A stretch of 64,000 nucleotides of DNA from a virus, in IMG/VR virus record IMGVR_UViG_3300025941_000001, positions 1-64,000 of that record. One strand, 5' to 3'. Below, in pieces: positions 37,651-58,199 of this stretch. How positions within the stretch are numbered: position 1 is the stretch's first letter; each line of letters opens with the position of its first letter. The notes under the pieces were generated by a model. That model was not told where the DNA came from and did not search any database. It worked only from the letters and a program-made list of their open reading frames with translations. Position numbers and translations under genes: made by a program.

Positions 37651-37684
37651 TCTATGTGATCCTATGGTGCCGAACAACTAGCAA
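37649..37684 (-). promoter_or_regulatory. CTAG-box late promoter candidate
   Basis: TTGCTAG-TTGTTC-N17-TAGAAT (the -10 overlaps the start codon at 37650). Confidence 0.45.
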
Positions 37685-40274: not shown

Positions 40275-41372
40275 TTAGCTCTCGCGGGTGATCAGGCGAG
40301 CCAGCTTGATCTGCTTGCGCTCCGGGAACACTCGGACCCACGAGTTGGAATGGGCGAGGTTGTTCGTGGTCGCGGCGTTGGTCGGGCCACCTTCGGTCGC
40401 CGGGCTGCCGACGTAGGCATGACCGACCGGATGGATACACCACTCGACGCGGTTGTAGAGCGTATCGCTGCCCGCGCCGTTACCACGGTCCGGGTTGCGG
40501 AAGACTTCGGTCGGGACGATGGGCGTACCCACGCCGAGACGGAACGAGGCAGGGCCGACCAGCCACGTATGGTAGATGCCTGCGGCGGTCTGCGCGCCGT
40601 TGGAAGCATCGCCCGCCGGGTTGGGCATACCGTCGTCCACGATCACGCGGCGGCCGAGGAAGGTCGGAATGTTGACCTTGCCTTCGCTATCCGGGATGAA
40701 GTCGATCAGGTTGTTCTTCTGGGCGGTGGAGTACACGATGGAGTGCATGAACACTGCCGTCACGTCCTCGGCCGCGTCGCCGAGCAGGGTCGCGGTGTCG
40801 ATGAACGCCGACGCCGAGAAGTTGGTCACGCCAGCCGTGAAGCTGGAGCCCTTGATATCGTGGGTCAGGTCGTTCTGATGACCGTAGGCGGCATTGATGC
40901 CAAGCTGGCCGGAGCGACCGAGGGTCGGGTCGGCAAGCGCGTTGTTGGCGAAGATGCCGTTGGCGACCGCGACGAACGCACGCTGCAACCGGCGGACCCA
41001 GTAGTCGGACACGCGGCTCGCGATGCTCTGCATCGGGTCGGACCCGGCCAGAGCGGTCGCCAGACGCATCGTGCTCCACGAGGCGTTACGGCTCAGACGA
41101 ACCGCGACTTCGGCGGAGGTCTGGGTGATGTTCGGGGTCGAAGACGTGTTCGGGTCATCGCTCGACACGTTCTCGGCGGGGTCGCCGATGTCCTGCCAAG
41201 ACGGGACCGTGAAGGTCAGGCCGCCGCCAGCGAGCAGGTTGTCGAGGAAGTCATCACGCGCGGCGACGCCGCTCTGGATGATCGCGGTCTTCTCCATCGT
41301 CAACTGTTGGGTATACGGCGTGAAGACGGCGGGGACGATAACGTCGCTGATCTGGGTGGACACGTTGACCAT
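40275..41372 (-). CDS. Major capsid protein
   Basis: TQISDVIVPAVF.PY, GSDPMQ.IA.RV..YW, FMHS.VY, TFLGRRVIVDDGMP; GGAG RBS. Confidence 0.92.
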   Translation of the reverse strand: MVNVSTQISDVIVPAVFTPYTQQLTMEKTAIIQSGVAARDDFLDNLLAGGGLTFTVPSWQDIGDPAENVSSDDPNTSSTPNITQTSAEVAVRLSRNASWSTMRLATALAGSDPMQSIASRVSDYWVRRLQRAFVAVANGIFANNALADPTLGRSGQLGINAAYGHQNDLTHDIKGSSFTAGVTNFSASAFIDTATLLGDAAEDVTAVFMHSIVYSTAQKNNLIDFIPDSEGKVNIPTFLGRRVIVDDGMPNPAGDASNGAQTAAGIYHTWLVGPASFRLGVGTPIVPTEVFRNPDRGNGAGSDTLYNRVEWCIHPVGHAYVGSPATEGGPTNAATTNNLAHSNSWVRVFPERKQIKLARLITRES

Positions 41373-41500: not shown

Positions 41501-41536
41501 AGATTATCGCACTAAATTCCGGAAAACAACTAGTAA
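41501..41536 (-). promoter_or_regulatory. CTAG-box late promoter (MCP)
   Basis: TTACTAG-TTGTTT-N17-TAATCT. Confidence 0.65.
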
Positions 41537-44956: not shown

Positions 44957-45820
44957 TTACGCCGCGTCAGCGGCGGGCTTAGTTGCGCCGATAAACGACC
45001 CGGCTTGCGCCGCGATCTCGCCAGCTTTCACTTCGCCAAGCTGACGCACGAGCGCGCCCTGCTTGGTCATGTTCCAGCCTGCCTTCGACCATGGGTTGTT
45101 CGACCCGCCGTAAGTGCCCTTCGGTCCGCCGCCTCCGCCGGAGCCGCCGCCGACCGATGCAGGCCACCAATGCGGTGCCTTCTCGACCATGTCGCGGAGC
45201 CATTCCTTGGGGGTCAGGCCCGGGACGGTGCCGGGGACATCCTTGGTGATGATGCGCCCGTCCTCGGTCTTCTCGAAGATGCGGGAGCCGCGCAGAACCA
45301 CGTCGTCGAGGGCGGTGACTTGCACCTTCTCGGCCACGGCAGCATCACGGACAGTGCGCTCGATGCTGTCCATGGTGATGGAGCCTTTGAGGTTGGTGAC
45401 TTCGCCATCCTTCTCCATGACGAGCTTTTTCTGTGCGTCGAGTTGACGCTCCAGATTGGACTTGTCGCGCTCCAGCGGAGCGACAGCCTGCTTGACGCGG
45501 GCCGCGATGATCGGCTCAAGCTTCTCTTGGTCGAGGTGACCATCCTTGTTGATGGCTTCGAGTTGAGCCTTCACAGTTTCAAGCTCGTTGGCCTGAGCGT
45601 GGAAAGCCTCGGCGTCAACGCCATCGAACGAAGCGAGTGCGGTCTTCGTCGCCTTGTGGTCGGCCTTTTCCTTGCGGAGGGCTTCCTGCACGCGCTCGAC
45701 ATCCGCTTGCGTCTTCACGCCTTGGATGCCGGTCAACTCCCACTTGCCGTTGCGTTCCGTATAGAGGTCCGCATAGCCCTCCGGAATGTCTTCGGCGGTA
45801 TCATAGATTGTCTTCAACAT
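44957..45820 (-). CDS. Capsid scaffolding protein
   Basis: IPE.Y..LY.E..GKW.L N-terminus, long coiled coil, PH.WP.S.GGG, NPW..WN.T.Q tail. Confidence 0.85.
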   Translation of the reverse strand: MLKTIYDTAEDIPEGYADLYTERNGKWELTGIQGVKTQADVERVQEALRKEKADHKATKTALASFDGVDAEAFHAQANELETVKAQLEAINKDGHLDQEKLEPIIAARVKQAVAPLERDKSNLERQLDAQKKLVMEKDGEVTNLKGSITMDSIERTVRDAAVAEKVQVTALDDVVLRGSRIFEKTEDGRIITKDVPGTVPGLTPKEWLRDMVEKAPHWWPASVGGGSGGGGGPKGTYGGSNNPWSKAGWNMTKQGALVRQLGEVKAGEIAAQAGSFIGATKPAADAA

Positions 45821-45849: not shown

Positions 45850-46191
45850 TCATTCCGATGAGGACCCGGCCATCCGGGATTTGCGTTTGTGGAGCAATCC
45901 TTTGCCGAGGCGAAGGATATGCTGCCGGGTGATCTCCGTCGCGCCGTTGGCTCCGTTCAAGCGACGAGAACCGATGACGCGATGGGCGATATCAGTGTTG
46001 TCCTCGCCAGCGGTGAGGCCAACACTAATTGCGGTATGGATGCGCTCGGCATCCTGAGCAGCGATGTTGCGCGCCCAGTGCGCAAGCTCGTGCCCGTGTA
46101 TCTTGAGCACCTTCTTTTTGCCGGTGCGGAAGCGATGCTTGTCCCACGCGCCGCCGTCGTGCTCGTGATCTCCAATCTCTGGGTCGCTCAT
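45850..46191 (-). CDS. Short/truncated MuF(gp7)-like head protein
   Basis: ERI..AI..G...GE....IA.RV.G.R resembles a MuF segment; only 113 aa. Confidence 0.5.
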   Translation of the reverse strand: MSDPEIGDHEHDGGAWDKHRFRTGKKKVLKIHGHELAHWARNIAAQDAERIHTAISVGLTAGEDNTDIAHRVIGSRRLNGANGATEITRQHILRLGKGLLHKRKSRMAGSSSE

Positions 46192-47177
46192 TTGCGTCCC
46201 TCATTCTCGGTCCAGTCCGGCATCAGCCCGATCTTCTGCGGCGCGAAGACCGTGTGCTCGGCGTCGGCGGTTCGGTTAGTTGCGCCGTGCGGGCCGTAGT
46301 TGACCCATGAGTTCTGTCCGCGCGTCTCCGATGTCATCGCTTTGCGCGCGAGGTCCGAATACATCGAGGCGTGAGAGCGCCAAGCGTTCTCTTCTCCCTC
46401 GGCGCGAAAACCATTGCCTTCTTTCAAGTGCCCCATCATGTCGTGCACGATGCGGAAAACGTCGTTGACGACCACGTGCCTGCCGTCGATCACTTCGCCG
46501 GTCGGCCGGAGCATCGGGTTCGTCTCGGCCTTGTCGTTGCTCTTGTCGGTCTTGTTGCCGTAGCCGAGGTCCGTGGGAAAGCCCCACCAATGATTGTTCT
46601 CGCTCACATCCATCGCCGCGAGACGCGGCGAGAGCGCATAGGGGTCCTTCTGTCCGGGCTTGACCCACTCGACCTTGAGCCCGGTCTGCTTGATCACGTC
46701 CCACTGAGCGAGCGTCTCTTTCGCCATCGCCTCGTAGCTGGCCTTGACCTCGGGGTTGTTCGGGTCATCCTTCATCTTGTCGTATTCGTCGGCGATCTTC
46801 GCGGCGCGCTCTTTGTCGAGCTTCGCGTACTCGGTCGGCGGCGAGTACGGCATCCCGGCCTTGTCCATGTAGGCCTTCGCCGCGTCGCGGAGCCGACCGA
46901 TGGGACCGGGGACGTACCACTGATCGCCCAGTTGAATAGGCTTTTGCGGCAGTCCGACGAGCGGCTTCGCGCCCGCTGCAACTTTCTCCGCCTGCGCCTG
47001 CGCTTCCTCGGGCGTGCTCGCGCCCGCGTGCGCGGCCGGACCGATGGGTCGCTGTTCCGGCGGGTGCATCGGCTGTTGCGTGACAGCCGCGCTCGCTGCC
47101 GCTACGCCCTTGAGCGGAACGTCTTGCGTGCCGAACTCGCCGTGGTTGTTGCGAGCCTGTGCGGGGTTATATGTCAC
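46188..47177 (-). CDS. Head-region protein with zincin-like HDxxGH...E motif
   Basis: NDVFRIVHDMMGH...GEENAW..H..MYS..A..A..SETRGQNSW; N-terminal YNPAQARNNHGEF. Confidence 0.7.
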   Translation of the reverse strand: MTYNPAQARNNHGEFGTQDVPLKGVAAASAAVTQQPMHPPEQRPIGPAAHAGASTPEEAQAQAEKVAAGAKPLVGLPQKPIQLGDQWYVPGPIGRLRDAAKAYMDKAGMPYSPPTEYAKLDKERAAKIADEYDKMKDDPNNPEVKASYEAMAKETLAQWDVIKQTGLKVEWVKPGQKDPYALSPRLAAMDVSENNHWWGFPTDLGYGNKTDKSNDKAETNPMLRPTGEVIDGRHVVVNDVFRIVHDMMGHLKEGNGFRAEGEENAWRSHASMYSDLARKAMTSETRGQNSWVNYGPHGATNRTADAEHTVFAPQKIGLMPDWTENEGRK

Positions 47178-47418
47178 TGGGCAGATGCTCTCTCAAATGG
47201 CGAAACGCCGCCTTGATGTGATGATGGCGGAGCGCAACGATCTTTTTCGTCAACTCGTCTCGGGTCAGCATGGCATCGCTGACCTTTGTTCGATTGACGC
47301 CCGCCACGTCCATCAAGTTCGTCTCGATGAGGTCGCGAATTTGCGGTTCGCAACCATCAAGGATGTCGATGGCCTCGTGAAAGGTCTTTACGATGTGCGC
47401 TCCGGCCGGATCACTCAT
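47167..47418 (-). CDS. Hypothetical protein
   Basis: ATGA coupling to portal. Confidence 0.6.
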   Translation of the reverse strand: MSDPAGAHIVKTFHEAIDILDGCEPQIRDLIETNLMDVAGVNRTKVSDAMLTRDELTKKIVALRHHHIKAAFRHLREHLPSDI

Positions 47419-49130
47419 GCGCCGCCTTTGGTCTTCCCGGCCGACGCGCCCTTCTTGCCGACCTTGCGCTTCAACGGAACAGGTGACCCACGCGTATGGC
47501 CCTTTGGACTTTGACTGTTCGGTTTGATCGGAACGTTCGAATTGGGAGGCGCAGTCGATGCAGGCCCAGCCGGAGGTGCAGTACCGGCGGGAGGTGCAGT
47601 GGCTCCGGGCGTGCCCGCAGCCGGATCAGAGATAGGGTCGTTGCCCTCATCCAAGAATGTATCATCGGTGACAGACTGTTGGAACGGCCCAACCATCGTG
47701 CCGAGCATCGACGCGGCTTCCTCTTCGATCTGTGCGTTCTCTTCTTCAAAATCCATCTCCGTCATGTCGTTAAGCTTCATCATGCGGTGCATAGAACGAA
47801 GAGACAGGGGCAGGCCCAGTTGCTTCGCTTGCATGAAGGCAAGCAGAGCAGCGCCAGCGACAGTCTGATCGGCGAAGTCGGTCGTCGGTTTGACACTGAC
47901 TTCATCCGGGTCTTCTCCAACCCACTCGGCCGCGTACTTGAGCGCTCGCTCAAGCCCGGCTCCGGCGGCCTTCGCCACGGACGAGATCGTGGTCGTGCGC
48001 GCCGCCAGTCGAATGCGGAGCGCCTCGCCGCTCTGGCCAGTGTCAGTGCCGACATCCAAAAACGCGTTGCCCTCTTGGGCCGCGCGCATCTTGTCGTTCT
48101 CCAGCGATTGACGCATCTCGCCGAGACCGGCGGCCGAAACGCCGATGTACTTCGCGTCGCCGCCGATGCGGAGGTCGATCACGCCCTTGTTGCCGACGCG
48201 CAGAGTGTTGGGCGCGGCTTCATCGACGTTGCCGCCGATGATGACGAGGGTGTTCTGGCCCTGCAAGTAGAGCGTCTGCCGGTAGTCGGCTTCGCCGCGA
48301 TAGATCGCGAGCGACAGGTTCGACAGGCCGAGCAATGGGGAAATCTCGGGCTCGGGCACGAGATCGTTCGCGCCGATGAAGACGAACGGGATTTCGTCGA
48401 GCGTCTTGCCCGCGATGCTAGGATAGATGAAATCCGTGAGTTGCGGCATGTTCGTGTCATTGACCTTTACGGCGACGCCGAACGGCGCGCCCGGGGGCGG
48501 ACGCTCCCATCCGCTATCAAGCTCCGCCTGTCCGCCACGAGTGAGGACGCGGTACTTGCGCTCGGTCTTCCACGTGAAGCCCTCACGCCGATAGCCGCTC
48601 TCGTCGAGCACGACGAGTTCAAGCTCTTGCATGCCTTCGTCCAGTTTCCCCGCGTCCCAGTTGATGATGCGCTCGGGATTGTAGAACGAAATGTAGGGAG
48701 TTGCCTTGTCGGCATCGACGCCCTGCGGCGTATCGACAAGCAGGCCGCAGCGCCCGTAGACGAGTTGCGCGACGTTGATCCTGCGGAGCAACGCTTGCAA
48801 ACCTTCGCCCTGCACGGTCGCCTTCGTCATCATGTCTTCGAGTTTCTTCGGCAGCACGATCTCGGCGGGCTTGTTGTGCATGATGCCGACCATGGCTTTG
48901 ACGGCATCCTTGACCACGTCATGGTAGTAGGCGCGCAACAGATACGCCTCGTAGTCTTTCCAGCCGGGGGAGGTCGGCGTCGTCATCCCGTCCTGCACCA
49001 TGCCCTCGGTCGCCGGGAGATAATCGAGACGCTTCGATTTCACCGCGCGCTCGCCCGCGTAGGTGTCGCTCATCTGTATCCATTCGCCGAGCCGCTCGAC
49101 GTATTCGGGATGCTTGTCCGGGAGTGCCAT
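47415..49130 (-). CDS. Portal protein (DUF4055-type)
   Basis: HPEY...W....D.Y.GE..VK.....YLP, Y.AYL.RA, YGR.GLLVD, E.IINW, IPFVF.G, SGEALRIR. Confidence 0.9.
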   Translation of the reverse strand: MALPDKHPEYVERLGEWIQMSDTYAGERAVKSKRLDYLPATEGMVQDGMTTPTSPGWKDYEAYLLRAYYHDVVKDAVKAMVGIMHNKPAEIVLPKKLEDMMTKATVQGEGLQALLRRINVAQLVYGRCGLLVDTPQGVDADKATPYISFYNPERIINWDAGKLDEGMQELELVVLDESGYRREGFTWKTERKYRVLTRGGQAELDSGWERPPPGAPFGVAVKVNDTNMPQLTDFIYPSIAGKTLDEIPFVFIGANDLVPEPEISPLLGLSNLSLAIYRGEADYRQTLYLQGQNTLVIIGGNVDEAAPNTLRVGNKGVIDLRIGGDAKYIGVSAAGLGEMRQSLENDKMRAAQEGNAFLDVGTDTGQSGEALRIRLAARTTTISSVAKAAGAGLERALKYAAEWVGEDPDEVSVKPTTDFADQTVAGAALLAFMQAKQLGLPLSLRSMHRMMKLNDMTEMDFEEENAQIEEEAASMLGTMVGPFQQSVTDDTFLDEGNDPISDPAAGTPGATAPPAGTAPPAGPASTAPPNSNVPIKPNSQSPKGHTRGSPVPLKRKVGKKGASAGKTKGGA

Positions 49131-49199: not shown

Positions 49200-50795
49200 T
49201 TAAGCGCCTGTGCGTCCGGACTTCATAGTCCGAACCTCGAAGCGGAGCATGTATCGCGTTTCGTCGCCGTTATGATCTTCGCTCTCGTCGTCAACGTCGT
49301 CGATCTTCAACTCGTCACGCGGGAGGACAGGGACGCAACGAAGCCATTGAGGGCATTCGGTGGTGATGAACAGGCCGGGCGTTTCCCGGAAGCCGCCCGG
49401 GGGCCGCTTGGTCGCCTTGAGGGCTTTACGGATTTGCTCCCATCCCTGCTCACGCGAGCCCGCGCCCTTGTCGGCGCGTTCCCAGAAAATGCCGCGATGC
49501 TTGACGCCGTTGATCGTGACCGGCTTCTCGAAGTCGTTCGCGATGGTGACCTCGGAGCCGTTCGTGTTGTCGTCGAAGATTTGCGTGTCGGCCGGGCCGC
49601 GCGAGACGCGGGTCCACGATGCATCGGCTGCGCGCAGGCCCCACTTGATCTCGCGCTCGATGATGCCCTTCGCGATGTCGGGGATGAGCATGCGCGAGCC
49701 TTCGTTCGCGACGCCGCGCCAGCCGTACCATTCCTTGAACCGAAACTTGTCGCCGCGCAGGGTCGAGCGCACGCGTCCATCGCGAAGCTTGAGATCGGTG
49801 CCGTCGCTGACAGCGTACCAGCCGACCGAGAACGGCTTCGACGAACCGTGGTCGTATGCGCGATAGATTTTCCAGCCCGCCGGAATGTCGAACGGCTCCA
49901 TGACGACCGTGTCGCGATATTCATACCAGATGTCGTCGAACATGCCGCCCGCGACGATGTCCCACGACCCATCGAGCCACGCTGCCTTTTCCGATGCGTT
50001 GCGCGCAGCGGCGGCGATACGGCCTTTGTACTCGGGGTCGGCGTGCAAGAGCAATTGGTTCTCGTCGAGATACCCGTGGATGGCGCGACGCGGCGGTTCC
50101 TTGTTGCCCTCGGCGTCAATATCTCCGACGATGAGCGGACCGACGCACGGACGCGTGCCGTTCGGCCCCATCTCGCCGTTGATCGGCAGCCGCCAGCGCG
50201 CCTTGACCCAGTTGTGGCCGACGCCGTATGGGTTCGTCGTCGCACGGATTTTGCGCGGCATGCCCTTGATGGTCGAACGCGAGCACGAGAACATGCTCTT
50301 GTAGCAATCCGGGTTCGGCCAGTTGGTCAACTCTTCCCAACCAATCCACGGATAAGCGTGGCCGTGGTAGTTGTCGTAGTCGCTGCGAACGTTGAAGTGC
50401 GCGAAGTAGAGACGCTCGCCCGTGGGCCACTCCCACATCGTCTTCACTTCGTTGTAAATCGCATCGGGCCAGATGCGCTTGATCCATTTCTTCGACTTCT
50501 CGATGATGTCGCGCAACTGCGGATGGGTCTGACGGAAGAGGATGCCTTTCCATTCCGCGCCGTGGCCTTTACCGATCTCTTGACAGAAATCCATGATGAG
50601 CGCGTCGGTCTTGCCCGGGCCGCGCGTACCCTCGTAGAGAACCTCGACAGTCGGATCAGCGAGAAAGAACGTTTGCGAGCCGGGTTGGGGAGCCCAAGCG
50701 ACTTGCTTCAACACGCCGTTAGCGTCCCGCACATACGGGACGTACTCGCCGTTGATCGACTTGAAAGTCTCGACTGATCCGGTAAGCTCAAACAT
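49200..50795 (-). CDS. terL: Terminase large subunit
   Basis: PQPGSQ..FL, EGTRGPGKT, IGWEELT, RATTNP.GVGH.WVK, RAYDHG, DH..DE.RY. Confidence 0.95.
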   Translation of the reverse strand: MFELTGSVETFKSINGEYVPYVRDANGVLKQVAWAPQPGSQTFFLADPTVEVLYEGTRGPGKTDALIMDFCQEIGKGHGAEWKGILFRQTHPQLRDIIEKSKKWIKRIWPDAIYNEVKTMWEWPTGERLYFAHFNVRSDYDNYHGHAYPWIGWEELTNWPNPDCYKSMFSCSRSTIKGMPRKIRATTNPYGVGHNWVKARWRLPINGEMGPNGTRPCVGPLIVGDIDAEGNKEPPRRAIHGYLDENQLLLHADPEYKGRIAAAARNASEKAAWLDGSWDIVAGGMFDDIWYEYRDTVVMEPFDIPAGWKIYRAYDHGSSKPFSVGWYAVSDGTDLKLRDGRVRSTLRGDKFRFKEWYGWRGVANEGSRMLIPDIAKGIIEREIKWGLRAADASWTRVSRGPADTQIFDDNTNGSEVTIANDFEKPVTINGVKHRGIFWERADKGAGSREQGWEQIRKALKATKRPPGGFRETPGLFITTECPQWLRCVPVLPRDELKIDDVDDESEDHNGDETRYMLRFEVRTMKSGRTGA

Positions 50796-51588
50796 CGTCG
50801 TCGCCGCCCTCTTCGAATGTCACGGTCGGACGCCCGGTCTTGCGGTAGTTGCTCTCGATTTCGTTGAGGTCGGTAGCCGCAATCGTTCGCATCGGGACCA
50901 CGAGCACGCCGCCGCGCACGTTGACATCGACGCTGGCCTTGTTGCCATAGGTCTTCGACATGCGGGTCTTGAGGATGAACATCGCAAGGTCCGGGTCCAT
51001 CTTGTAGACAGTCTCCGGAACGGGAGCGCCGAACTCGTCGGTGAGATAGTTATCCGGGACAAGCTCGGGCAAGCCGAGATCGCGCGCATCCGCGAGCTTC
51101 TTTGGGTCGTACTTGTATTGCACACGTCCCTGATAGACGAGCGTCTCGTCGTAGCCGGTCGCGCGCTTGATCGTCGCAGCCTCGACCTTCTGGACGCCCG
51201 CCTCCATGGCGATGTCCCACGCTTCATGGAAGCGCACGGTGTTGTCGTCGGTGCCATTCTCGTCGTCGTCGCCCATGACGATGTCGAAGCCATCCCCCGG
51301 TGCGCCTTCGAATGATTTCTGGAGCCAATATTTCAACGTCGTGTAGTTGATGCCGAGCCGACGCGCGACATCAGCGCCGACCGGCATTTCGGTCGCGTAG
51401 CTCAGCGCACGGTTGAGGCGTTCGGGGGTGTTCTTGCGGGCTGCGCGATTGACAGGGTAAGATCGCGAGCGCTCTAGGACGGCTTTGCCTGATCGGTCGA
51501 GGGGCACTGCGCCGTCAAGTAGGTTCTCTTCGGGCTCGGCGACCGGGTCGGGGCCAAGCATCTCATCAAGCTCTTTGTCGCCGCTCAT
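50788..51588 (-). CDS. terS: Terminase small subunit
   Basis: HTH (VARRLGINYTTLKYW), F.EAW..A.E.G...VE.....RA.G, D..L.MF.LK.R....YG. Confidence 0.8.
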   Translation of the reverse strand: MSGDKELDEMLGPDPVAEPEENLLDGAVPLDRSGKAVLERSRSYPVNRAARKNTPERLNRALSYATEMPVGADVARRLGINYTTLKYWLQKSFEGAPGDGFDIVMGDDDENGTDDNTVRFHEAWDIAMEAGVQKVEAATIKRATGYDETLVYQGRVQYKYDPKKLADARDLGLPELVPDNYLTDEFGAPVPETVYKMDPDLAMFILKTRMSKTYGNKASVDVNVRGGVLVVPMRTIAATDLNEIESNYRKTGRPTVTFEEGGDDDV

Positions 51589-51660
51589 GCGGTGGTTCCT
51601 CTCAGTATTCACCGCACAAGCGATGGAGCGCGCACATGCGCGCCTCGTCCTATACGGGTT

Positions 51661-51685
51661 CGCGCATAATCTCAGATTATGCGCG
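51661..51685. repeat. Perfect palindrome with 12-bp arms upstream of terS
   Basis: CGCGCATAATCT-C-AGATTATGCGCG. Confidence 0.85.
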
Positions 51686-51704
51686 TTCGCGTATCATTCG
51701 GTCG

Positions 51705-52082
51705 TCAGATTGATCCGTCTTCGAGAATGGACGGATAGAGGCGGGCCGGAAGCGCGCCGTAGTTCATCGCGCAGCCTTTGACAAAGCGCACGACCAAAAT
51801 CATCGGGCTGTCTTCTTTCATGCGATAGAACATGAAGGTCGTATCGTCGGGCAACTTGAAGTCCGCGCCCATATAGTTCTTGGCGAAGTTCTTGGCCTCG
51901 TCGCCCTCGACTTTCTTGAGAGCGATGCCCTGTTTGCCGACCTTGTCTTCGAGCGACTTGGTGACGCTCTCATACGAGAAGCATGTAGCCTCCGCCGGTT
52001 TCGCCGCCGACTTGGGCGGGGTCTTGGCGAAGGCTGGAGTGATGGCGAGCAGCGCAACGAGGGACAACGATGCGAGCTTCAT
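51705..52082 (-). CDS. Secreted hypothetical protein
   Basis: Signal peptide MKLASLSLVALLAITPAFA; GAGGTG RBS. Confidence 0.75.
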   Translation of the reverse strand: MKLASLSLVALLAITPAFAKTPPKSAAKPAEATCFSYESVTKSLEDKVGKQGIALKKVEGDEAKNFAKNYMGADFKLPDDTTFMFYRMKEDSPMILVVRFVKGCAMNYGALPARLYPSILEDGSI

Positions 52083-52085
52083 GGT

Positions 52086-52406
52086 TCACCTCTGATAGTT
52101 GCCGCCCATGGCGCGCTTGGTCGCGGCCCTGACGTTGTTCGTCGGGAAACTGATCTTGCTGTCGCGCGCCTTCATGCCGGGGTGCGTCGTGATCGGCGTC
52201 TGATCGACCTTGCGGGTCTGCCAGTCGCCAGCATCGGCACTCGGGTCCGCCGGGAGACCATAGTCGCGATCCATGCGCGTGCTCTGGCCGGGAAGGTCGC
52301 TCGACGGTCCCTGATAGCCGTTCTGGCCGTAGCCATTCTTGGCCTTCTGCTTGGAACCTATGAGGGCGTCGGAGCCCGCAGCTTGAGCGTCAATTGGGTC
52401 GGTCAT
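52086..52406 (-). CDS. Disordered Gly/Asp/Gln-rich late protein
   Basis: AAGGA RBS; NGYGQNGYQG. Confidence 0.7.
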   Translation of the reverse strand: MTDPIDAQAAGSDALIGSKQKAKNGYGQNGYQGPSSDLPGQSTRMDRDYGLPADPSADAGDWQTRKVDQTPITTHPGMKARDSKISFPTNNVRAATKRAMGGNYQR

Positions 52407-52424
52407 TGGTCAAATCCTTCGGGG

Positions 52425-52769
52425 TTAGCGGCCGAGGTTCGACGCCTCGGTGAGCACAGCATGGCCGAGGTTGCCGTTGACCGACTGGCCGTTGGCGTCC
52501 TTCATGCCCCACTTCGCGGGCGCGTCCGGAAACTTCTTGAGCTTCGGCGACGGGCTCAGCGGGTTCGCCGGGTCCGCGTCGGGGCCGACGCCGGGATTGG
52601 CCGGGCTCACGCCCGCCATCTCAGCGGTGCGGTCGCGCATGCCATACGTGGTCGGGAATTTCGTCTGGGGCCGCTTTGCAGCGCCATCGCGCGCAATGTT
52701 GGTGTTGGTCAGGTCCTTCATGCCTTGCTTGGCAGGGGCCGCAGTGCCGCCGTTCGTCTGATACGCCAT
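52425..52769 (-). CDS. Disordered late protein with three GM(K/R)D repeats
   Basis: AKQGMKDLT, TTYGMRDRT, AKWGMKDAN; GAGGA RBS. Confidence 0.75.
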   Translation of the reverse strand: MAYQTNGGTAAPAKQGMKDLTNTNIARDGAAKRPQTKFPTTYGMRDRTAEMAGVSPANPGVGPDADPANPLSPSPKLKKFPDAPAKWGMKDANGQSVNGNLGHAVLTEASNLGR

Positions 52770-52808
52770 GATGAGGTCCTCGCGTGCGCAGATGTGATTT
52801 CGCCGCCA

Positions 52809-52844
52809 AGCTTACTAGGCTTGACGGCGACAAACAACTAGCAT
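52809..52844 (-). promoter_or_regulatory. CTAG-box late promoter
   Basis: ATGCTAG-TTGTTT-N17-TAAGCT. Confidence 0.6.
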
Positions 52845-52848
52845 GTTC

Positions 52849-53046
52849 TCAGCACGCGCTTATCGGGGATGTCGGCCCCATCGGGCCTGTCGTAGGCGGT
52901 CCGTTCGCTCCCGGAGCCGCTCCCGTGCCCGGGCTGCCCGGAAGGACCGGAGCAGGGTCGCGAAGGGGCGCACGCTGGCTTTTAGGATGGCCATTGGCCA
53001 GCGCTCGCGCCGCGTCGTCGTTGTCAACAGTGATCGGGTTTGCCAT
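52849..53046 (-). CDS. Small Pro/Gly-rich hypothetical protein
   Basis: GGAG RBS. Confidence 0.6.
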   Translation of the reverse strand: MANPITVDNDDAARALANGHPKSQRAPLRDPAPVLPGSPGTGAAPGANGPPTTGPMGPTSPISAC

Positions 53047-53049
53047 CGG

Positions 53050-53499
53050 TTACTCCCCCGTGCCGCCTGTCCGGATTTCTTTTCCATGCTTGACATCCCA
53101 GATGGCGATTTGGTTGTGCTTGCGGCCAGTGTTGACGGCCTCACGCTTGCTTCTGATGTTGTGGGATACGTCGAGATATGTTTTGCCGGTTTCCTTGTCG
53201 GTCCAGCCGCCGATGTGCGCTCGTGGATCACGCAACACGTCGGCGTGCGCGTTGGCATATTGCGAGATGATTTCGTGGCCCTGCGGACCGCTCAGCGCCT
53301 TCTCGGAAACGATTTGCGTGTGGCCGGGTATCGAAACCATAAAGCCGTTCGACGGCATGCGCCCGTTCGTCGGTCGAACCGAGAAGCCGCCGGGGTTGCC
53401 GGTGACAGTCTTGATCACGCTGGGATGGAGCGGGAGCTTGCCGATTTTGGCGACGCCCGAGTTGTGGGCGTTGGAGCCGTGGCCGAGTGCGTCTTTCAT
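53050..53499 (-). CDS. MKDALGHGSN-leader protein 8; possible SAM-lyase/DUF3293-like fold
   Basis: Leader; GGFSV..GFMVS..IGGW.D..G..YLDVS..EAV..G...NQ.AIWD. Confidence 0.8.
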   Translation of the reverse strand: MKDALGHGSNAHNSGVAKIGKLPLHPSVIKTVTGNPGGFSVRPTNGRMPSNGFMVSIPGHTQIVSEKALSGPQGHEIISQYANAHADVLRDPRAHIGGWTDKETGKTYLDVSHNIRSKREAVNTGRKHNQIAIWDVKHGKEIRTGGTGE

Positions 53500-53500
53500 G

Positions 53501-53833
53501 TCAGAGCCATTTCGATTTCTTGATGGGATGTTCGTTGCCTTGGTAACGTTTGCGCGCCTCGCGCTCGTCGATCAGCGAGCGGAGGTGCGCGGTATTGGCG
53601 CGATACTCATCGAAGATCGGATGGCCGGTCATTTGCATGATCTCGTTGCCCTTGACCATGCCGTGACCCATGTCGATGAGCTTGCTGTTGATCTCGCTGC
53701 TCTTCGCCTGCGCCTTCTCATACGCCTTGAGCAGGGCAGCACGCGGCAACTCCGAAATAGGTTTCGGCTTGCGCGGCAACGTCTCGATGCCAGTGTTGTG
53801 CGCGTTGGAGCCGTGACCGAGCGCGTCCTTCAT
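53501..53833 (-). CDS. MKDALGHGSN-leader protein 7
   Basis: MKDALGHGSNAHNTG. Confidence 0.8.
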   Translation of the reverse strand: MKDALGHGSNAHNTGIETLPRKPKPISELPRAALLKAYEKAQAKSSEINSKLIDMGHGMVKGNEIMQMTGHPIFDEYRANTAHLRSLIDEREARKRYQGNEHPIKKSKWL

Positions 53834-54120
53834 TTGAACCCCCGACGAGCGTCGCGATCTGTCTTCATCTCTTTCTTGAAATTCTTGACCATGAACCCAT
53901 TGTGATCTCGGAGCGCGGAGACAGCCCGATCAAGATTGGCCTTCTCCATCCGGTATTCGGTTGAGGTTCTGATGTGCTCCGGCGGCAGCCCCAAGGGGCC
54001 TCTTGGGTACTTATCCATGGCACGAGCATGCTGCTCAACGGTCGCGGTCAGGCCCGCGTTGTGCGCGCGATGGAATGCATAGTCATGGGCATTGCTGCCG
54101 TGGCCGAGAGCGTCCTTCAT
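53830..54120 (-). CDS. MKDALGHGSN-leader protein 6
   Basis: MKDALGHGSNAHDY; YPRGPLGLPPEHIR. Confidence 0.8.
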   Translation of the reverse strand: MKDALGHGSNAHDYAFHRAHNAGLTATVEQHARAMDKYPRGPLGLPPEHIRTSTEYRMEKANLDRAVSALRDHNGFMVKNFKKEMKTDRDARRGFK

Positions 54121-54353
54121 TTGATCCTCACACGCGAGTTGGGATTGTCAACGCGATGAAACTGGGCGATCTTCTCGGCGACAGCGCGACGGCGCGAGCC
54201 GCCGACCTTCTGCCAGATGTTGCCCGAGGTCGTGACCTTCTGCCCGGCCGCCGTGACGCCGTGGAAAGCGATGTGCTTCTCGACCTTGAACTGATGGCGC
54301 GGCGACTTGAAAGCTCCGCGTCCGTTGCTGCCGTGTCCGAGTGGGTCTTTCAT
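54117..54353 (-). CDS. MKDALGHGSN-leader protein 5
   Basis: MKDPLGHGSNGRG. Confidence 0.8.
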   Translation of the reverse strand: MKDPLGHGSNGRGAFKSPRHQFKVEKHIAFHGVTAAGQKVTTSGNIWQKVGGSRRRAVAEKIAQFHRVDNPNSRVRIK

Positions 54354-54589
54354 GGCGTCCTCTTCATGCTGTTATAGCCCCGCTCCCACTCCGCCGCAAG
54401 TGCCCCGTCATTTGGGGTTAACAATTCGTTGTGCGGGTTCTCCGCCGGACGCCCGAGCCGCCGGGCCTCGCGTCCCTTGTAGAAGGCGATCTCCAGCGGG
54501 GACATGGACGGCGTCGGCGTGAACTTCGAATGCGGCACCAAAATGGAAACGCCGACCGAGTGGGTCGGCTTTGGAAATCGTTGGGCCAT
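54350..54589 (-). CDS. Hypothetical protein without leader inside the array
   Basis: AFYKGREA...NPH....W.RGY; coupled on both sides. Confidence 0.65.
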   Translation of the reverse strand: MAQRFPKPTHSVGVSILVPHSKFTPTPSMSPLEIAFYKGREARRLGRPAENPHNELLTPNDGALAAEWERGYNSMKRTP

Positions 54590-55077
54590 TAGCGCCCCTT
54601 GAGCAGCCGGTGGATTGCACTTGCTTCCTTACCGCCGATACGCCGCCCGCTGCGGTTCGACGAAGCAATGGCCTTGTTGACCGCGTCGGGGCTGTAACCA
54701 TGACGACCGAGCGTGCTGTCCGGAGACGGGTTGCTCGGCCGCATGGTCGGGCCTGTGCCCTTCGACGCACCGTAATCGTGCATGCTGTCGTGGATTGGGG
54801 CCGGTGCCGACTTCGGTCCGCTCGCGAGCGAGGCCTTTGCGTCCTGATCGGCGTAGCGCTGCAACTGGAACTGGGCGGTCGCGTGAGCGTCGGCGATGTC
54901 GTCCGTGTGACTGTCGGCCTTCGATTGATAGACGCCGTTGTGGAAAAATTTAACGACCTTCTCGCCCCACTCCGGGTTGTTGTAGACCTTCGCCGAGTGC
55001 GGTCCGTTGACATGCGTCTTGATCAGACGCATTCCCCTCGTGCCCGTGTCGCTGCCGTGGCCCTTTGCGTCCTTCAT
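54589..55077 (-). CDS. MKDALGHGSN-leader protein 4
   Basis: MKDAKGHGSDTG; AKVY.N.EW.E.VVKF..NG...AD.HTDD..DA..TA. Confidence 0.8.
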   Translation of the reverse strand: MKDAKGHGSDTGTRGMRLIKTHVNGPHSAKVYNNPEWGEKVVKFFHNGVYQSKADSHTDDIADAHATAQFQLQRYADQDAKASLASGPKSAPAPIHDSMHDYGASKGTGPTMRPSNPSPDSTLGRHGYSPDAVNKAIASSNRSGRRIGGKEASAIHRLLKGR

Positions 55078-55146
55078 GATCAGTCCTCGTTGTTGAGATC
55101 GCCCGCAGACAACGAGCCATGGTAGCGTGTAGCCGCTGCGCTCTTG

Positions 55147-55620
55147 TCACTTGTTGTGATACCGGATATCGAACCCGTGTTGGTATGAGGTGGACACGCT
55201 CCGAGCTTTTGGATGCTTCGCGAAAGCCTCGGCTGCCGCCGCTTCGCGAGTGGCGTGCGGGCCGTACTCGCCGAGCTTGGAGCCGTTCTTCGACGAGACC
55301 CGAGCATATAGCGGGCGAACGCCGCTCGCTACCATGCTGTCGTGCGTCGGAGCCGGGTCCGATTTCGGGGTGCCGCTGTGAAGCTGATCCGCTGGCGCGT
55401 CCGACTTGCCGCCGCGCGCCCGATACGCGAGCACGGTCGAGGCGTCGTTGACTTGGTCCGCGTACTTGTTGATGCCGCGCTGATCGCCCATCTCTTGCGC
55501 GTTGCGACCGGCCTCGTGAGCATCCCGTTGGATGTAACGAAGCTCATCGTTCGTCTTCGCGTGATAGGCGTGACCCGGAATTGGTCGCGCGTTGGAGCCG
55601 TGTCCCAGTGCGTCCTTCAT
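55147..55620 (-). CDS. MKDALGHGSN-leader protein 3
   Basis: MKDALGHGSNAR; ELRYI.RDA.EA...KYADQV.DA..VL..R. Confidence 0.8.
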   Translation of the reverse strand: MKDALGHGSNARPIPGHAYHAKTNDELRYIQRDAHEAGRNAQEMGDQRGINKYADQVNDASTVLAYRARGGKSDAPADQLHSGTPKSDPAPTHDSMVASGVRPLYARVSSKNGSKLGEYGPHATREAAAAEAFAKHPKARSVSTSYQHGFDIRYHNK

Positions 55621-56027
55621 GACTTGAACTTTCCAAGACCGCCTGCGAAGTGTCCGCCATTGAACCGAGGCGCGGGCGACTTCTTGGTGCTCATGGTCAT
55701 CCCGGTGTTGGATGACGCTGCACGATACTTGCCCAGTTGCTTCGAGGTGTTGATTTTGGTGATCTCGCGCGTGGACTTGTTCTTGTAGCTCGTGTTCGGC
55801 TGCGATGCCTTCACGAACAGGTCGCGTCGAAATCCCGGATTGGTCGTTGCAAGGTGATTGGCCATGGCCTCGACGCGAGCGTCGTGCCCGGCCGGATCAT
55901 TGACAGCCTTGGAGCGGAGGTCGGCGGCGATCTGCTCGAAGTGACGCCGACCGAGCTTGGCCGGGAGCGCCTTGATCATCGCCGAATGAACTCCGGCGTC
56001 GGAGCCGTGGCCGAGTGCGTCTTTCAT
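55617..56027 (-). CDS. MKDALGHGSN-leader protein 2
   Basis: MKDALGHGSDAG; RRHFEQIA..L...NP.F.R..F..A. Confidence 0.8.
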   Translation of the reverse strand: MKDALGHGSDAGVHSAMIKALPAKLGRRHFEQIAADLRSKAVNDPAGHDARVEAMANHLATTNPGFRRDLFVKASQPNTSYKNKSTREITKINTSKQLGKYRAASSNTGMTMSTKKSPAPRFNGGHFAGGLGKFKS

Positions 56028-56030
56028 GGT

Positions 56031-56306
56031 TCACATTCCTTTGCGGCCGACTTCGCCATTGCGAATGCGCGTGACGAGGTTGCGATTGTACTCGCGTTCT
56101 GGAGATCGATCATTCCACGTCTGGAGCGGGGCCTTGATCATCGTTTTGCCCATCGCGCTCATGAGCGCTGCGCTTGCCGAGGCGTTCGACGACTGCGGGA
56201 TGCCGCCGCCCTTGAGCGAGGTCACGTGCGTCAATCGCGCCCTGAGCGCATCGAGCATTGCGCCGTCGCCGGAGCCGTTGCTCCCGTGGCCGAGTGCATC
56301 CTTCAT
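56031..56306 (-). CDS. MKDALGHGSN-leader protein 1
   Basis: MKDALGHGSNGS; GGAG RBS. Confidence 0.8.
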   Translation of the reverse strand: MKDALGHGSNGSGDGAMLDALRARLTHVTSLKGGGIPQSSNASASAALMSAMGKTMIKAPLQTWNDRSPEREYNRNLVTRIRNGEVGRKGM

Positions 56307-56318
56307 CGGAGGGCTCCG

Positions 56319-56558
56319 TCAGACGTTGTGGTAGGTGCTGTCGTGCTTGCCGAGAACGGCGTCGGCCTTGTGCCTGATCTTCGCGGCCTGCTCGGGGGAC
56401 AGCTTGCCTTTCGCGACCATCTGGGTCGCACGGGCCTTGGCGTTCGCGGCATGCGATGGGTCGTTGACCGGGTACTTCCCGGGCTGGCCCTTCTTGCCGG
56501 GCAGCGCGAATTTTCCCTTGGGCAGCGCGTTGCGTTTCTTGGCTGTGAGTTTGGCCAT
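56319..56558 (-). CDS. Small basic protein (DUF6582-like pattern), first gene of the late transcript
   Basis: LTAKKRNALP...FALP...KYPVND.SHA.NA.AR; GGAGG RBS. Confidence 0.75.
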   Translation of the reverse strand: MAKLTAKKRNALPKGKFALPGKKGQPGKYPVNDPSHAANAKARATQMVAKGKLSPEQAAKIRHKADAVLGKHDSTYHNV

Positions 56559-56590
56559 GGCGGCCTCCGGATGTCTCGATCTGGGGCGAG

Positions 56591-56626
56591 AGATTATCCC
56601 AGACGAGACCCCGGGGCAACTAGCAA
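56591..56626 (-). promoter_or_regulatory. CTAG-box late promoter driving the leader-protein array
   Basis: TTGCTAG-TTGCCC-N17-TAATCT. Confidence 0.65.
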
Positions 56627-56944
56627 TTACATCAGGTCCGCGAACTCGTCGGTCGCCGGGTTGGCGTCGGCTGTCTCTTGCGGGATGGAGCCGGTGCTCC
56701 GAGCCTCGGCCGCATCGGTGTCCCGCTTCGTCGGGGGCCGAGCTTTCACGCTGCCGGTCGTCATCGCGAGCATCAATGCCTTGACCGGGTCCACGTCTTC
56801 GGCGAACGAGACGCCGAACTTCGAGGACATCGCGTAGGAGCCGCGCCACTTCGTTCCGTTCTGCGATGGCGTCAGACTGATGTGGCTGATCTCGCCGCGC
56901 GCAGCGAGGTTGCGGATTGCATCTTCAAGCGTGAGGGTCGTCAT
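56627..56944 (-). CDS. Hypothetical protein
   Basis: GGAG RBS; MTTLTLEDAIR. Confidence 0.65.
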   Translation of the reverse strand: MTTLTLEDAIRNLAARGEISHISLTPSQNGTKWRGSYAMSSKFGVSFAEDVDPVKALMLAMTTGSVKARPPTKRDTDAAEARSTGSIPQETADANPATDEFADLM

Positions 56945-57092
56945 CGGGCGCGTCTCCAGTGATGGGCCGGTAGGGCTTCGGCTCAGGGGTTGCAGGTTTG
57001 GGCTTGGCACGGAAGTCCTCCCACGCCTTCCGACGTTCCTCTTGCGAGATGATCAGGAACGTCGGGATGCCGTCATTTGTTGCGTTCGGCAT
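56925..57092 (-). CDS. Small hypothetical protein (not in ORF track), MPNATNDGIPTFLIISQEERRKAW...
   Basis: Fills the 56944-57073 gap. Confidence 0.5.
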   Translation of the reverse strand: MPNATNDGIPTFLIISQEERRKAWEDFRAKPKPATPEPKPYRPITGDAPDDDPHA

Positions 57093-57345
57093 ACTCGCGT
57101 GCCTTCTGTTGTCGCTCGCGACGGAGATCGGAAAACTTCGCGAGCAAATCGCTTAACAGGTCGAGCGCCTCGTCTTCTGAGAAGTGCGCGACGTAGTCAG
57201 CGATGGTGACCGTGATCTCAGTCCCTATCGCCTTGACGAAGCCGCCTTGCGGCGGAGCCCAGACGATGTGAGTGCCGACCGAAGGTTGACCCTCGGCGAT
57301 GACACGCTTGACCGTTCGAATAGACCGTTTGCGGATTTCAGCCAT
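57073..57345 (-). CDS. Hypothetical protein
   Basis: GGAG RBS. Confidence 0.65.
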   Translation of the reverse strand: MAEIRKRSIRTVKRVIAEGQPSVGTHIVWAPPQGGFVKAIGTEITVTIADYVAHFSEDEALDLLSDLLAKFSDLRRERQQKAREYAERNK

Positions 57346-57649
57346 TGCCGTCTGTCTCCGGGTTGTAGTTTTGCCAGCCCGCGTCATACGCGCATTTGAC
57401 GTACTCGTCAAACACTTCGTCGGCCTCGGGCTTGAACTTGCACAGTCGGTGAAACTCCGGCCATGTCTTCGGCGTGTCGCCGGGCGAGCACTCTTCGACG
57501 CCCGGAACGAACATGCAAACCTTGACCGCTCGGTCGCTCAGCCATTGGATGCGAACGTCGCCAAGCTCCATCGCCTTCCCGTGCCCACGCTTGAGCATCA
57601 GTATGCGAACGGCGTCGCCCGGGTACTGTGGCTCGGTCCACAAACTCAT
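57338..57649 (-). CDS. Hypothetical protein
   Basis: GAGG RBS. Confidence 0.65.
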   Translation of the reverse strand: MSLWTEPQYPGDAVRILMLKRGHGKAMELGDVRIQWLSDRAVKVCMFVPGVEECSPGDTPKTWPEFHRLCKFKPEADEVFDEYVKCAYDAGWQNYNPETDGNG

Positions 57650-57933
57650 TTGTTCGCCTCGGTGTTGATCCACTCTCGCGCTATTTCGAGGGTGTCAGCT
57701 TTCAATTCAGCATCGCCTCCACCATGAACGAAAAACGGTCCAGTGTAAACTCCGTCTACGGTTCGCCCGTTCTCGAAGGTCGAGATCGTGAAGCCGCGAT
57801 AGAGAAGCTGATCGTAGTCGCCCGGGTATTGATGCGTTGCGGTGTATAGGATCATGTCGGCGGGTTTTTGGACCCGCCAACCATTGACGCTGACTAGGTC
57901 CGTGTCGATCTTCACGCGGCCATCTGCACTCAT
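57646..57933 (-). CDS. Hypothetical protein
   Basis: ATGA coupling. Confidence 0.6.
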   Translation of the reverse strand: MSADGRVKIDTDLVSVNGWRVQKPADMILYTATHQYPGDYDQLLYRGFTISTFENGRTVDGVYTGPFFVHGGGDAELKADTLEIAREWINTEANK

Positions 57934-58199
57934 CGCCGACATCCCATGGCAGGATGCACGATGCGGCCTTCGTCGGTCCACATGACGACCGGCGAGCAGA
58001 CGCGCTGCTCGTGGCGGGCTTTGCCGATCTCCGATTGCGTCGCCGGAGGTCCGACGATAATCATCCCGGAGTTGGTGCCGAGGTTCCAGCCGTAGTAGTG
58101 GTGATTGACGCTAAAGCCGGAACGGTTCCAGTCGTCGTATGCCTTCGCGGGGGACACGACGCTGACCGCGACGAGCGCGGCCAATATCAACTTCTTCAT
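57930..58199 (-). CDS. Secreted hypothetical protein
   Basis: Signal peptide MKKLILAALVAVSVVSPAKA. Confidence 0.7.
   Translation of the reverse strand: MKKLILAALVAVSVVSPAKAYDDWNRSGFSVNHHYYGWNLGTNSGMIIVGPPATQSEIGKARHEQRVCSPVVMWTDEGRIVHPAMGCRR

Follow-up and report, generated by a model that had tools for sequence, protein, structure and literature searches.

A conserved N-terminal peptide on small late proteins of an uncultured soil phage and other phage lineages, a candidate tag for virion cargo

Introduction

In its logic, the closest known system to the one described here is the capsid targeting sequence (CTS) of phage T4, carried by the internal proteins IPI-III and by Alt. A short conserved N-terminal peptide is shared there by unrelated, mostly small and basic late proteins (PMC3012670, PMC5694885), and the gp21 protease cuts off the CTS propeptides of 10-20 residues at sites such as ITE and LTE (PMC5694885). 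We analysed a window consisting of the first 64 kb (64,000 nucleotides, nt) of the virus record IMGVR_UViG_3300025941_000001 of IMG/VR. The record is complete, at 93,824 bp with direct terminal repeats, and its source is an uncultured soil phage with a genome of about 94 kb. At positions 53050-56306 of the window, eight small late open reading frames (ORFs) on the minus strand open with the peptide MKD(A/P)(L/K)GHGS(N/D). We favour the reading, to which we give about an even chance of being right, that this peptide is a portable tag on virion-internal, injected cargo, and that the array corresponds to a polyprotein divided into individual genes.

The likeness to T4 extends to diverse, fast-evolving payloads with an ADP-ribosyltransferase among them (Alt in T4, ART-PolyVal in tagged relatives), and to encapsidation and injection, which we propose here; in T4, packaging has been demonstrated. 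A short N-terminal peptide is conserved in all eight ORFs and in 129 relatives. Membership of the T4 system nevertheless fails on cleavage and on sequence. The tag has no sequence likeness to the T4 CTS, and whereas the latter is removed at a gp21 site, the tag has no L/I-x-E ending and the source phage has no protease detectable with the Pfam models named below.

Encapsulin cargo-loading peptides, which are short and Gly/Ser-rich, direct cargo of many kinds into the interior of an HK97-fold shell. By inspection, they differ from the tag in being usually C-terminal, in having another consensus and in binding a pocket of the shell. MuF-anchored polymorphic toxins and SPP1 gp7-type proteins show another likeness, in that a head-associated module encoded beside the portal gene carries effector domains into the capsid.

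In giant phages, a short sequence code is common to many proteins of the inner head and of ejection, where it stands at joints or close to the N-terminus, and the prohead protease (phiKZ gp175, SPN3US gp245) reads S/A/G-x-E sites (PMC5694885). These codes, however, are lineage-specific cut sites set by the residues on the P side, whereas the KDAxGHGS motif is constant across lineages with different proteases or none and would lie on the P' side. Polyvalent proteins carry 2-15 effector domains in one polypeptide, and their packaging and co-injection with DNA have been predicted (Iyer et al., 2017; PMC5512222). The tagged proteins resemble them in the ART-PolyVal and ParB-like (ParB_N) domains of some tagged relatives and in being encoded beside portal and terminase genes, the array lying upstream of terS, terL and portal. 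The domain of one tagged protein, ORF 8, is also a module of large multi-domain phage proteins. The difference is that the tagged modules are separate genes of 61-205 amino acids (aa; 78-162 aa in the window), each with its own start and stop and its own copy of the N-terminal peptide, and the passages that a term search of that paper retrieved describe no such tag or joint motif.

Results

We regard as established that the motif exists and is restricted to N-termini in the source genome, and likewise its distribution, what its carriers are composed of, their modular design and their gene context. The eight ORFs start at 56306, 56027, 55620, 55077, 54353, 54120, 53833 and 53499 on the minus strand, as the first-pass annotation had reported. 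Seven begin with MKDALGHGS or MKDPLGHGS and one with MKDAKGHGS, and the next residue is N or D. In a six-frame translation of the whole 93,824-bp genome, the pattern K[DE]..GHG[ST] matches eight times, always right behind a start Met, against an expectation of 0.008 from residue frequencies and 0.02 from 100 shuffles. The block comprises the following ORFs, given with isoelectric points (pI) where these are individually relevant; RMF stands for ribosome modulation factor.

56031..56306, minus strand: tagged ORF 1, 91 aa, pI 10.6, no cysteine (Cys)
55617..56027, minus strand: tagged ORF 2, 136 aa, pI 10.6, no Cys
55147..55620, minus strand: tagged ORF 3, 157 aa, with a copy of a second motif (SGTPKSDPAPTHDSM)
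54589..55077, minus strand: tagged ORF 4, 162 aa, opening MKDAKGHGSD, with the second motif; matches phrog_7884 (E 2.6e-14)
54350..54589, minus strand: untagged RMF-like ORF inside the array, 79 aa, ATGA-coupled
54117..54353, minus strand: tagged ORF 5, 78 aa, pI 11.8, opening MKDPLGHGSN; its family has 11 members in related arrays
53830..54120, minus strand: tagged ORF 6, 96 aa; matches phrog_7560 (E 1.1e-9), aligned from residue 28
53501..53833, minus strand: tagged ORF 7, 110 aa
53050..53499, minus strand: tagged ORF 8, 149 aa; the tag is modelled as disordered, the body as a compact alpha/beta domain
52849..53046, minus strand: untagged ORF d65, 65 aa, with a weaker copy of the second motif (ALANGHPKSQRAP)

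The gaps at the nine junctions of the block are, in order, 3, -4, 69, -1, -4, -4, -4, 1 and 3 nt, four of them ATGA overlaps. All eight tagged products are basic (pI 9.45-11.8), as had been claimed of most of them. The further claim that their bodies are unrelated holds for the most part, the exception being the ORFs that start at 55620 and 55077 (ORFs 3 and 4), which share a central segment (BLASTP E 4e-7). These two carry the second motif with the core L-x-S-G-x-PKS-x-PAP-x-HDSM. A strict pattern for it matches at least 11 of 129 tagged relatives and misses ORF 4's own copy; a wider consensus, (A)xxL-x-x-G-x-(P/S)KS-x-x-(A/V)P-x-HD(S)M, covers ORFs 3 and 4, the 65-aa ORF and roughly one in ten tagged relatives. 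The RMF-like ORF scores just above the Pfam cut-off for RMF (29.3 bits against 27.9; E 8.8e-7) and is kept within the arrays of many relatives.

The eight tags are conserved in protein and not in DNA, as first proposed. Ser is encoded by AGC in the ORFs starting at 56306, 55077, 54353 and 54120 and by TCC in those starting at 56027, 55620, 53833 and 53499; Lys appears as AAA and AAG, Ala as GCA, GCG and GCT, and Gly as all four of its codons. The same holds in an aligned set of 129 non-redundant, N-terminally tagged proteins, on which the following properties are based. K2, D3, G6, H7, G8 and S9 are invariant in this set, and the consensus extends to GHGS-(N/D/E)-x-(R/H)-G. At the invariant positions all synonymous codons occur, with both Ser families represented (112 AGY, 17 TCN), so that selection acts on the tag peptide and not on the DNA or RNA.

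The residue before K is the initiator Met in 97 of the 129 proteins, and the remaining 32 have Met followed by A, P or G. These three residues, next to Met, normally allow its removal, so that the finished tagged protein is predicted to have exactly one residue before K in every case. The cuts predicted in the two processed settings described below (B and C) would leave the same spacing.

The tagged proteins are 61-205 aa long and basic, with a pI above 8 in 97% and a median of 9.9. They are also nearly devoid of Cys, with one in 16,470 residues, compared with 1.45% in the other ORFs and 1.95% in the other small ORFs of the source genome, a background set that may hold some spurious ORFs. Known or likely virion proteins give similar counts: in the source phage, the tape measure protein has 0 Cys in 764 residues, the scaffold 0 in 287 and the portal 1 in 571 (the large terminase subunit, terL, has 6), and the annotated internal virion proteins of phage P60 have 0 in 1,000 and 1 in 1,639.

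The tag was said not to be a Sec signal, and this is borne out. The tag and the next 10 or so residues are polar and Gly-rich and lack the hydrophobic core that, in a Sec or Tat signal, follows a basic N-region (twin-Arg for Tat). The AlphaFold2 model of ORF 8 has a mean predicted local distance difference test score (pLDDT) of 84.8; residues 1-17, with the tag, fall below 50 and appear disordered, and the remainder forms a compact alpha/beta domain. Co-folding of the capsid protein, the scaffold and residues 1-40 of a tagged protein, run with alignments, scored 0.00, which speaks neither for nor against binding.

We then scanned viral, metagenome and genome collections with degenerate DNA patterns for the peptide, with and then without the ATG. 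The patterns matched 88 viral-contig stretches, 80 metagenome-contig stretches and a few bacterial metagenome-assembled genomes or genomes. Once duplicates had been collapsed, 316 distinct contexts remained, and in 256 the motif stands at the start of an ORF. We group the contexts into three settings: soil siphophage arrays (A), T4-like phages (B) and head polyproteins (C).

Setting A consists of high-GC soil siphophages whose terL is 63-97% identical to that of the source phage. They share the order p16160 - array - d114 - d106 - terS - terL - portal - scaffold - capsid, in which p16160, d114 and d106 are anchor genes described below and terS encodes the small terminase subunit. The relatives keep these anchors but differ in the tagged cassettes that lie between them, which number from 2 to at least 8 and agree with the idea of an expandable system. 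Extra tagged genes stand right after the portal gene in one relative (L001) or right after the tape measure gene. Throughout the clade, tagged genes occur only in late or structural operons, where they precede terS or follow the portal or tape measure gene.

Setting B comprises AT-rich T4-like myophages, whose full records encode a gp21-type protease (Peptidase_S77, E 1e-38). The carriers are a DUF6267 protein of about 400 aa and a cytidyltransferase-like protein of about 1,130 aa. Each begins with a short amphipathic leader, followed by (L/I/F/V)-x-E, one residue and KDA(L/G)GHGS. These leaders seem to resemble the T4 CTS and are called CTS-like here. Setting C contains head polyproteins with the motif at internal joints. 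Representative loci are:

L082:2197-6842, minus strand, and about 40 similar loci: T4-like carrier pair, Cys-free, with CTS-like leaders and then the motif
L069:521-4108, plus strand: head polyprotein on a 94-kb viral contig, DUF2213-led, with a zinc ribbon and a p16160-like module

The T4-like carriers have no Cys in 1,133 and 416 residues. Homologues of the DUF6267 protein show, on our reading, a K-x-DG motif as in nucleotidyl-transferring ligases. The two carriers are candidate packaged nucleotide-handling enzymes. Since the motif follows both the leader and the gp21-type cut site, it would remain as the mature N-terminus rather than be a removed address. It would thus be an additional, retained element past the leader and probably not a CTS, and equivalence to the T4 CTS is not supported.

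In setting C, the motif of L055 lies at position 232, 7 residues past a DUF2213 protease domain, and that of L069 at residue 910 of a polyprotein that is led by DUF2213 and has 1,328 aa in its full record. The joints of L069 are three copies of N-GGPGSGP and one N-E-KDALGHGS, all preceded by Asn, and its residues 688-731 form a phrog_16160-like module (E 1.4e-5). In L043, from the same 94-kb phage, KDALGHGS follows the portal C-terminus and precedes a C-terminal tail of 90 residues. A 197-kb phage (L033, L044) has the motif between zinc-ribbon modules; its joints read K-A-KDA, and searches for S77, S78 and DUF2213 proteases were all negative. With the motif spread over at least three phage lineages, the description of the array as an independent system is not supported.

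The motif is absent from the cultured homologues of its carriers, namely those of Syn9, S-PM2 and XG4, Rizal gp102 and P60 gp34. A word-based protein search with residues 1-40 of ORF 7 returned 5 close relatives only, from an index that requires several shared words. Full-text literature searches found no description of the motif, and the tag is most likely undescribed.

Among the tagged relatives, Pfam identifies ART-PolyVal in three proteins (E 8.7e-14) and ParB_N in one. A tagged family of about 205 aa (MPKDALGHGSNP...; L041:8486-9100, plus strand, with counterparts in L022, L070, L086, L074, L081 and L087) is inserted right after the tape measure gene in relatives and absent from the source genome. 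By size and N-terminal sequence these are probably the ART-PolyVal proteins; they form the only tagged family with a Cys.

The domain of ORF 8 matches part of the 'internal virion protein' gp34 of Synechococcus phage P60 (34.5% identity, E 7e-9) and the C-terminal part of phrog_3170 (E 5.8e-11). The N-terminal part of the same profile is matched by p329, the product of the gene after the portal in the source phage, and in gp102 of Bxz1-type mycobacteriophages, encoded among the head genes, a p329 homologue is fused to the ORF 8 domain. This fusion parallels the MuF and gp7 arrangement. The differences are that p329 has no MuF or gp7 match in Pfam and PHROGs, and that some tagged relatives encode no homologue of p329 in the portal-scaffold interval, so that it is not an obligate carrier. 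In BFVD, the ORF 8 domain is a module of phage proteins of 767-1,102 aa, one named Zeta-toxin-containing and one XkdF-like; against structures in the PDB, ORF 8 had no match with E of 0.001 or less. We rejected an S-adenosylmethionine (SAM) lyase or DUF3293 fold for ORF 8, for which Foldseek against BFVD gave E 0.11 (DUF3293) and 0.4 (SAM hydrolase).

Tag and payload are separable, because homologues of the ORF 6 body in RB43-like and jumbo phages lack the tag (they align from residue 11-18) and the PHROG profiles of ORFs 4 and 6 start past it, that of ORF 4 at residue 21. The same payload domains occur untagged in other phages, in keeping with a design of tag plus payload.

On the minus strand, the late genes run from a promoter-like box through p16160, the array, the small and conserved ORFs d65, d114 and d106 with a signal-peptide protein, terS, terL and portal to p329, the scaffold, a 700-aa protein, the capsid protein, an adaptor, the major tail protein and the tape measure. 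The first-pass annotation placed the array just upstream of the terminase and portal genes, and these do lie downstream, beyond four small ORFs. The features around the array are:

56585..56632, minus strand: promoter-like box ahead of the array operon, reading TTGCTAGTTG-N17-GATAATCTCTCGCC
56319..56558, minus strand: p16160, an untagged basic protein of 79 aa and the upstream anchor; phrog_16160 (E 2.9e-22), DUF6582-like
52425..52769, minus strand: d114, the downstream anchor, conserved, looks disordered, with three G-M-(K/R)-D repeats
52086..52406, minus strand: d106, an anchor, conserved, looks disordered and repeat-built, with an NGYGQNGY..SSDLPG motif
50788..51612, minus strand: small terminase subunit (terS), phrog_4044 (E 6.2e-10)
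49200..50795, minus strand: large terminase subunit (terL), phrog_979 (E 9.5e-28)
47415..49130, minus strand: portal protein, phrog_145 (E 2e-108), DUF4055
46188..47177, minus strand: p329, post-portal protein, N-terminal part of phrog_3170 (E 2.9e-14)
44957..45820, minus strand: head scaffolding protein, phrog_206 (E 1.7e-37)
40275..41372, minus strand: major capsid protein, phrog_247 (E 1.7e-100), starting MVNVST, with no delta domain

The gene for p16160 immediately precedes the array in every relative. We considered p16160 as the common reader of the tag and rejected it, since just one of five other records yielded a phrog_16160-like sequence, and there as a polyprotein module. We likewise rejected p329 as an obligate receptor, since in several relatives with the tag the interval from portal to scaffold encodes no p329 homologue. 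The AlphaFold2 model of p329 has a mean pLDDT of 46.5, too low for a fold search; the ESM Atlas gave unnamed viral clusters only, and sequence searches of the PDB produced no useful match for p329, for the 700-aa protein or for the scaffold.

Several neighbours have features of their own. The last repeat of d114, GMKDANGQSVNG, resembles the tag. The N-terminus of p329 is YNPAQARNNHGEFG and, in one relative, MYSPEEQRDDHGRW, which resembles an R-D-x-x-G-R-W-type peptide known from termini and joints of head-associated phage proteins and may be a further tag of this general kind. The gene for the 700-aa protein (42072-44174, minus strand) separates those of the scaffold and the capsid protein. 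The 700-aa protein is rich in Ser, Thr, Asn and Gly and has no family or solved-structure match. Its C-terminal third contains T-x-LSGI(S/G)Q repeats, and it may be a decoration or fibre protein. The capsid protein start, MVNVST, is conserved in relatives.

None of the five Pfam models used, Peptidase_S77, S78, S49, ClpP and DUF2213, has a match in the complete genome. Because of this, and because the capsid protein has no delta domain and a separate scaffold is present, head assembly in the source phage appears to proceed without a maturation protease.

A late-type promoter had been proposed at 56591-56626. A sigma-70 consensus scan of 51500-58000 found no site, but a near-identical box stands before the capsid gene. 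The array site and a site that closely precedes the capsid gene, at 41536, have the architecture TT(G/A)CTAGTTG-N17-GATAATCTC(T/A)CGCC in common. The TTGCTAGTTG decamer, with up to one mismatch, has four copies in the window (56617-56626, 52835-52844, 41527-41536 and 37675-37684), all on the minus strand, intergenic and among late genes; four matches were attained in 3 of 100 shuffles. The extension N17-GATAATCTCxCGCC is found at two of the copies, on the array side and on the capsid-gene side. The box may be a phage late-promoter box, and since it recurs almost exactly before the capsid gene, late co-expression of the array with the capsid gene is plausible.

Discussion

The tag-plus-payload design, the expandability and the non-Sec character ascribed to the array by the first-pass annotation have stood, whereas its independence and its equivalence to the T4 CTS have not. 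In the reading that we favour, the functional element would be a free, exposed N-terminus, X-K-D-A-x-G-H-G-S-(N/D/E), which is portable, selected as protein and marks small, basic, Cys-free late proteins as internal virion cargo. The array between the p16160 and d114 anchors would be a head-cargo polyprotein split into genes. Its fused counterparts in other phages would be the same modules strung after a maturation protease or portal with the motif at their joints, and in T4-like phages the motif would come to lie one residue past the gp21-type cut that removes the CTS-like leader. With a separate scaffold and no recognizable prohead protease, each module of the source phage would be translated separately, often through ATGA coupling, with the tag as its native N-terminus, and transcription would probably start from the same type of late promoter as that of the capsid gene.

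We infer packaging, a binding partner and injection for these proteins. While the procapsid assembles, the tag would attach its cargo to a conserved partner inside; alternatively, it would attach it to the DNA or the exit channel. The payloads would then be released along with the DNA and be active in the host cell infected next. Among relatives, such payloads would include the polyvalent-type ADP-ribosyltransferase, the ParB-like domain and the domain shared with a cyanophage internal virion protein. Circumstantial support for a virion-internal site comes from the near-zero Cys content, from payload domains of polyvalent and internal virion proteins, and from the motif at the joints of head polyproteins.

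Several points weigh against this reading. In the T4-like arrangement the motif would be dispensable as an address, a CTS-like leader being present, and its role could be after packaging or elsewhere. A strict 9-mer across divergent scaffold, capsid and portal lineages is hard to square with a lineage-specific structural partner. Cys depletion and basic charge also suit disordered or nucleic-acid-binding proteins, and the Cys comparison leans on the imperfect background noted above. A divergent protease could slip past the five Pfam models. Finally, no cultured phage with the tag was found: a tblastn search of GenBank phages with a 25-aa tag segment gave no match at E of 10 or less, a threshold that a 9-mer cannot reach.

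In a variant of this reading, X-K-D-A-x-G-H-G-S would be a pan-phage code for the mature N-terminus of cargo, apart from the targeting propeptide and the type of protease, and acting after assembly. Phages that are predicted to cut after E, N or K, and phages that have no protease, would all place K at residue 2 of the finished protein. The code might prime exit through the portal and tail channel with the N-terminus first, or hold cargo on the DNA, and would then be an injection signal with a logic comparable to that of secretion-system signals. We consider this variant quite unlikely.

The motif could instead serve only in processing, as the P' side of a protease site at the junctions between polyprotein modules; in the source phage it would be cut by an unrecognized phage or host protease or be a relic of polyprotein splitting. 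Its position after the DUF2213 protease domain (L055), inside a DUF2213-led polyprotein (L069) and after the portal C-terminus (L043), the Asn shared by both kinds of joint in L069 and the L-x-E site immediately upstream in T4-like phages are what this account would predict. In the window, however, all copies are at ORF starts, and at an M-KDA or M-A-KDA N-terminus there is nothing upstream to release. The complete genome has no detectable prohead protease and the capsid protein no delta domain, and E, N or K at -2 would call for three protease specificities with a single P' motif. Nor is the motif a relic, because its six invariant residues persist at true N-termini in 129 proteins despite full synonymous turnover. 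A junction signal of this kind is therefore very doubtful in our view. An action of the tag in the infected cell, unrelated to packaging, is less easily set aside, although we still think it fairly unlikely. The tag could be a linear motif for a host factor, a metal or modification site (at His or Ser) or an N-terminal stability signal of late host-takeover proteins. Its near-identity across very different hosts and architectures suggests that its partner is universal, for example a host protein, a metal or nucleic acid; the invariant D, H and S are reactive or ligand residues; the second motif, PKS..AP.HDSM, suggests proteins rich in short linear motifs; and the RMF-like gene inside the array is host-directed. 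But one His and one Asp make a weak metal site, and such a role leaves unexplained why the motif occurs in protease-led and portal-linked polyproteins and behind CTS-like leaders, why the tagged genes are found in structural operons only, and why Cys is avoided as in virion proteins.

A shared start could also reflect a nucleic-acid or translation feature, such as ribosome loading or re-initiation for ATGA-coupled genes, or a recombination site for cassettes. The ATGA overlaps and the shuffling of cassettes among relatives would suit it, but synonymous variation at every position, with Ser switching between AGY and TCN, has already largely refuted it. The same peptide also lies inside polyproteins and behind leaders, and the RMF-like gene is coupled in the same operon without a tag, which leaves this explanation scarcely credible.

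The near-absence of Cys in hundreds of tagged proteins is a separate signature of virion cargo that is easy to test. Should the tag indeed steer proteins into or out of the particle, it would be the first signal of this portable kind for cargo beyond the T4 family, and one that also works in siphophages without a protease. Its nine residues would then be a handle by which foreign proteins could be loaded into phage particles. It would also supply a rule, at the level of sequence, by which injected effectors of anti-defence or host takeover could be recognized in metagenomic phages, and an account of how head polyproteins and gene arrays interconvert.

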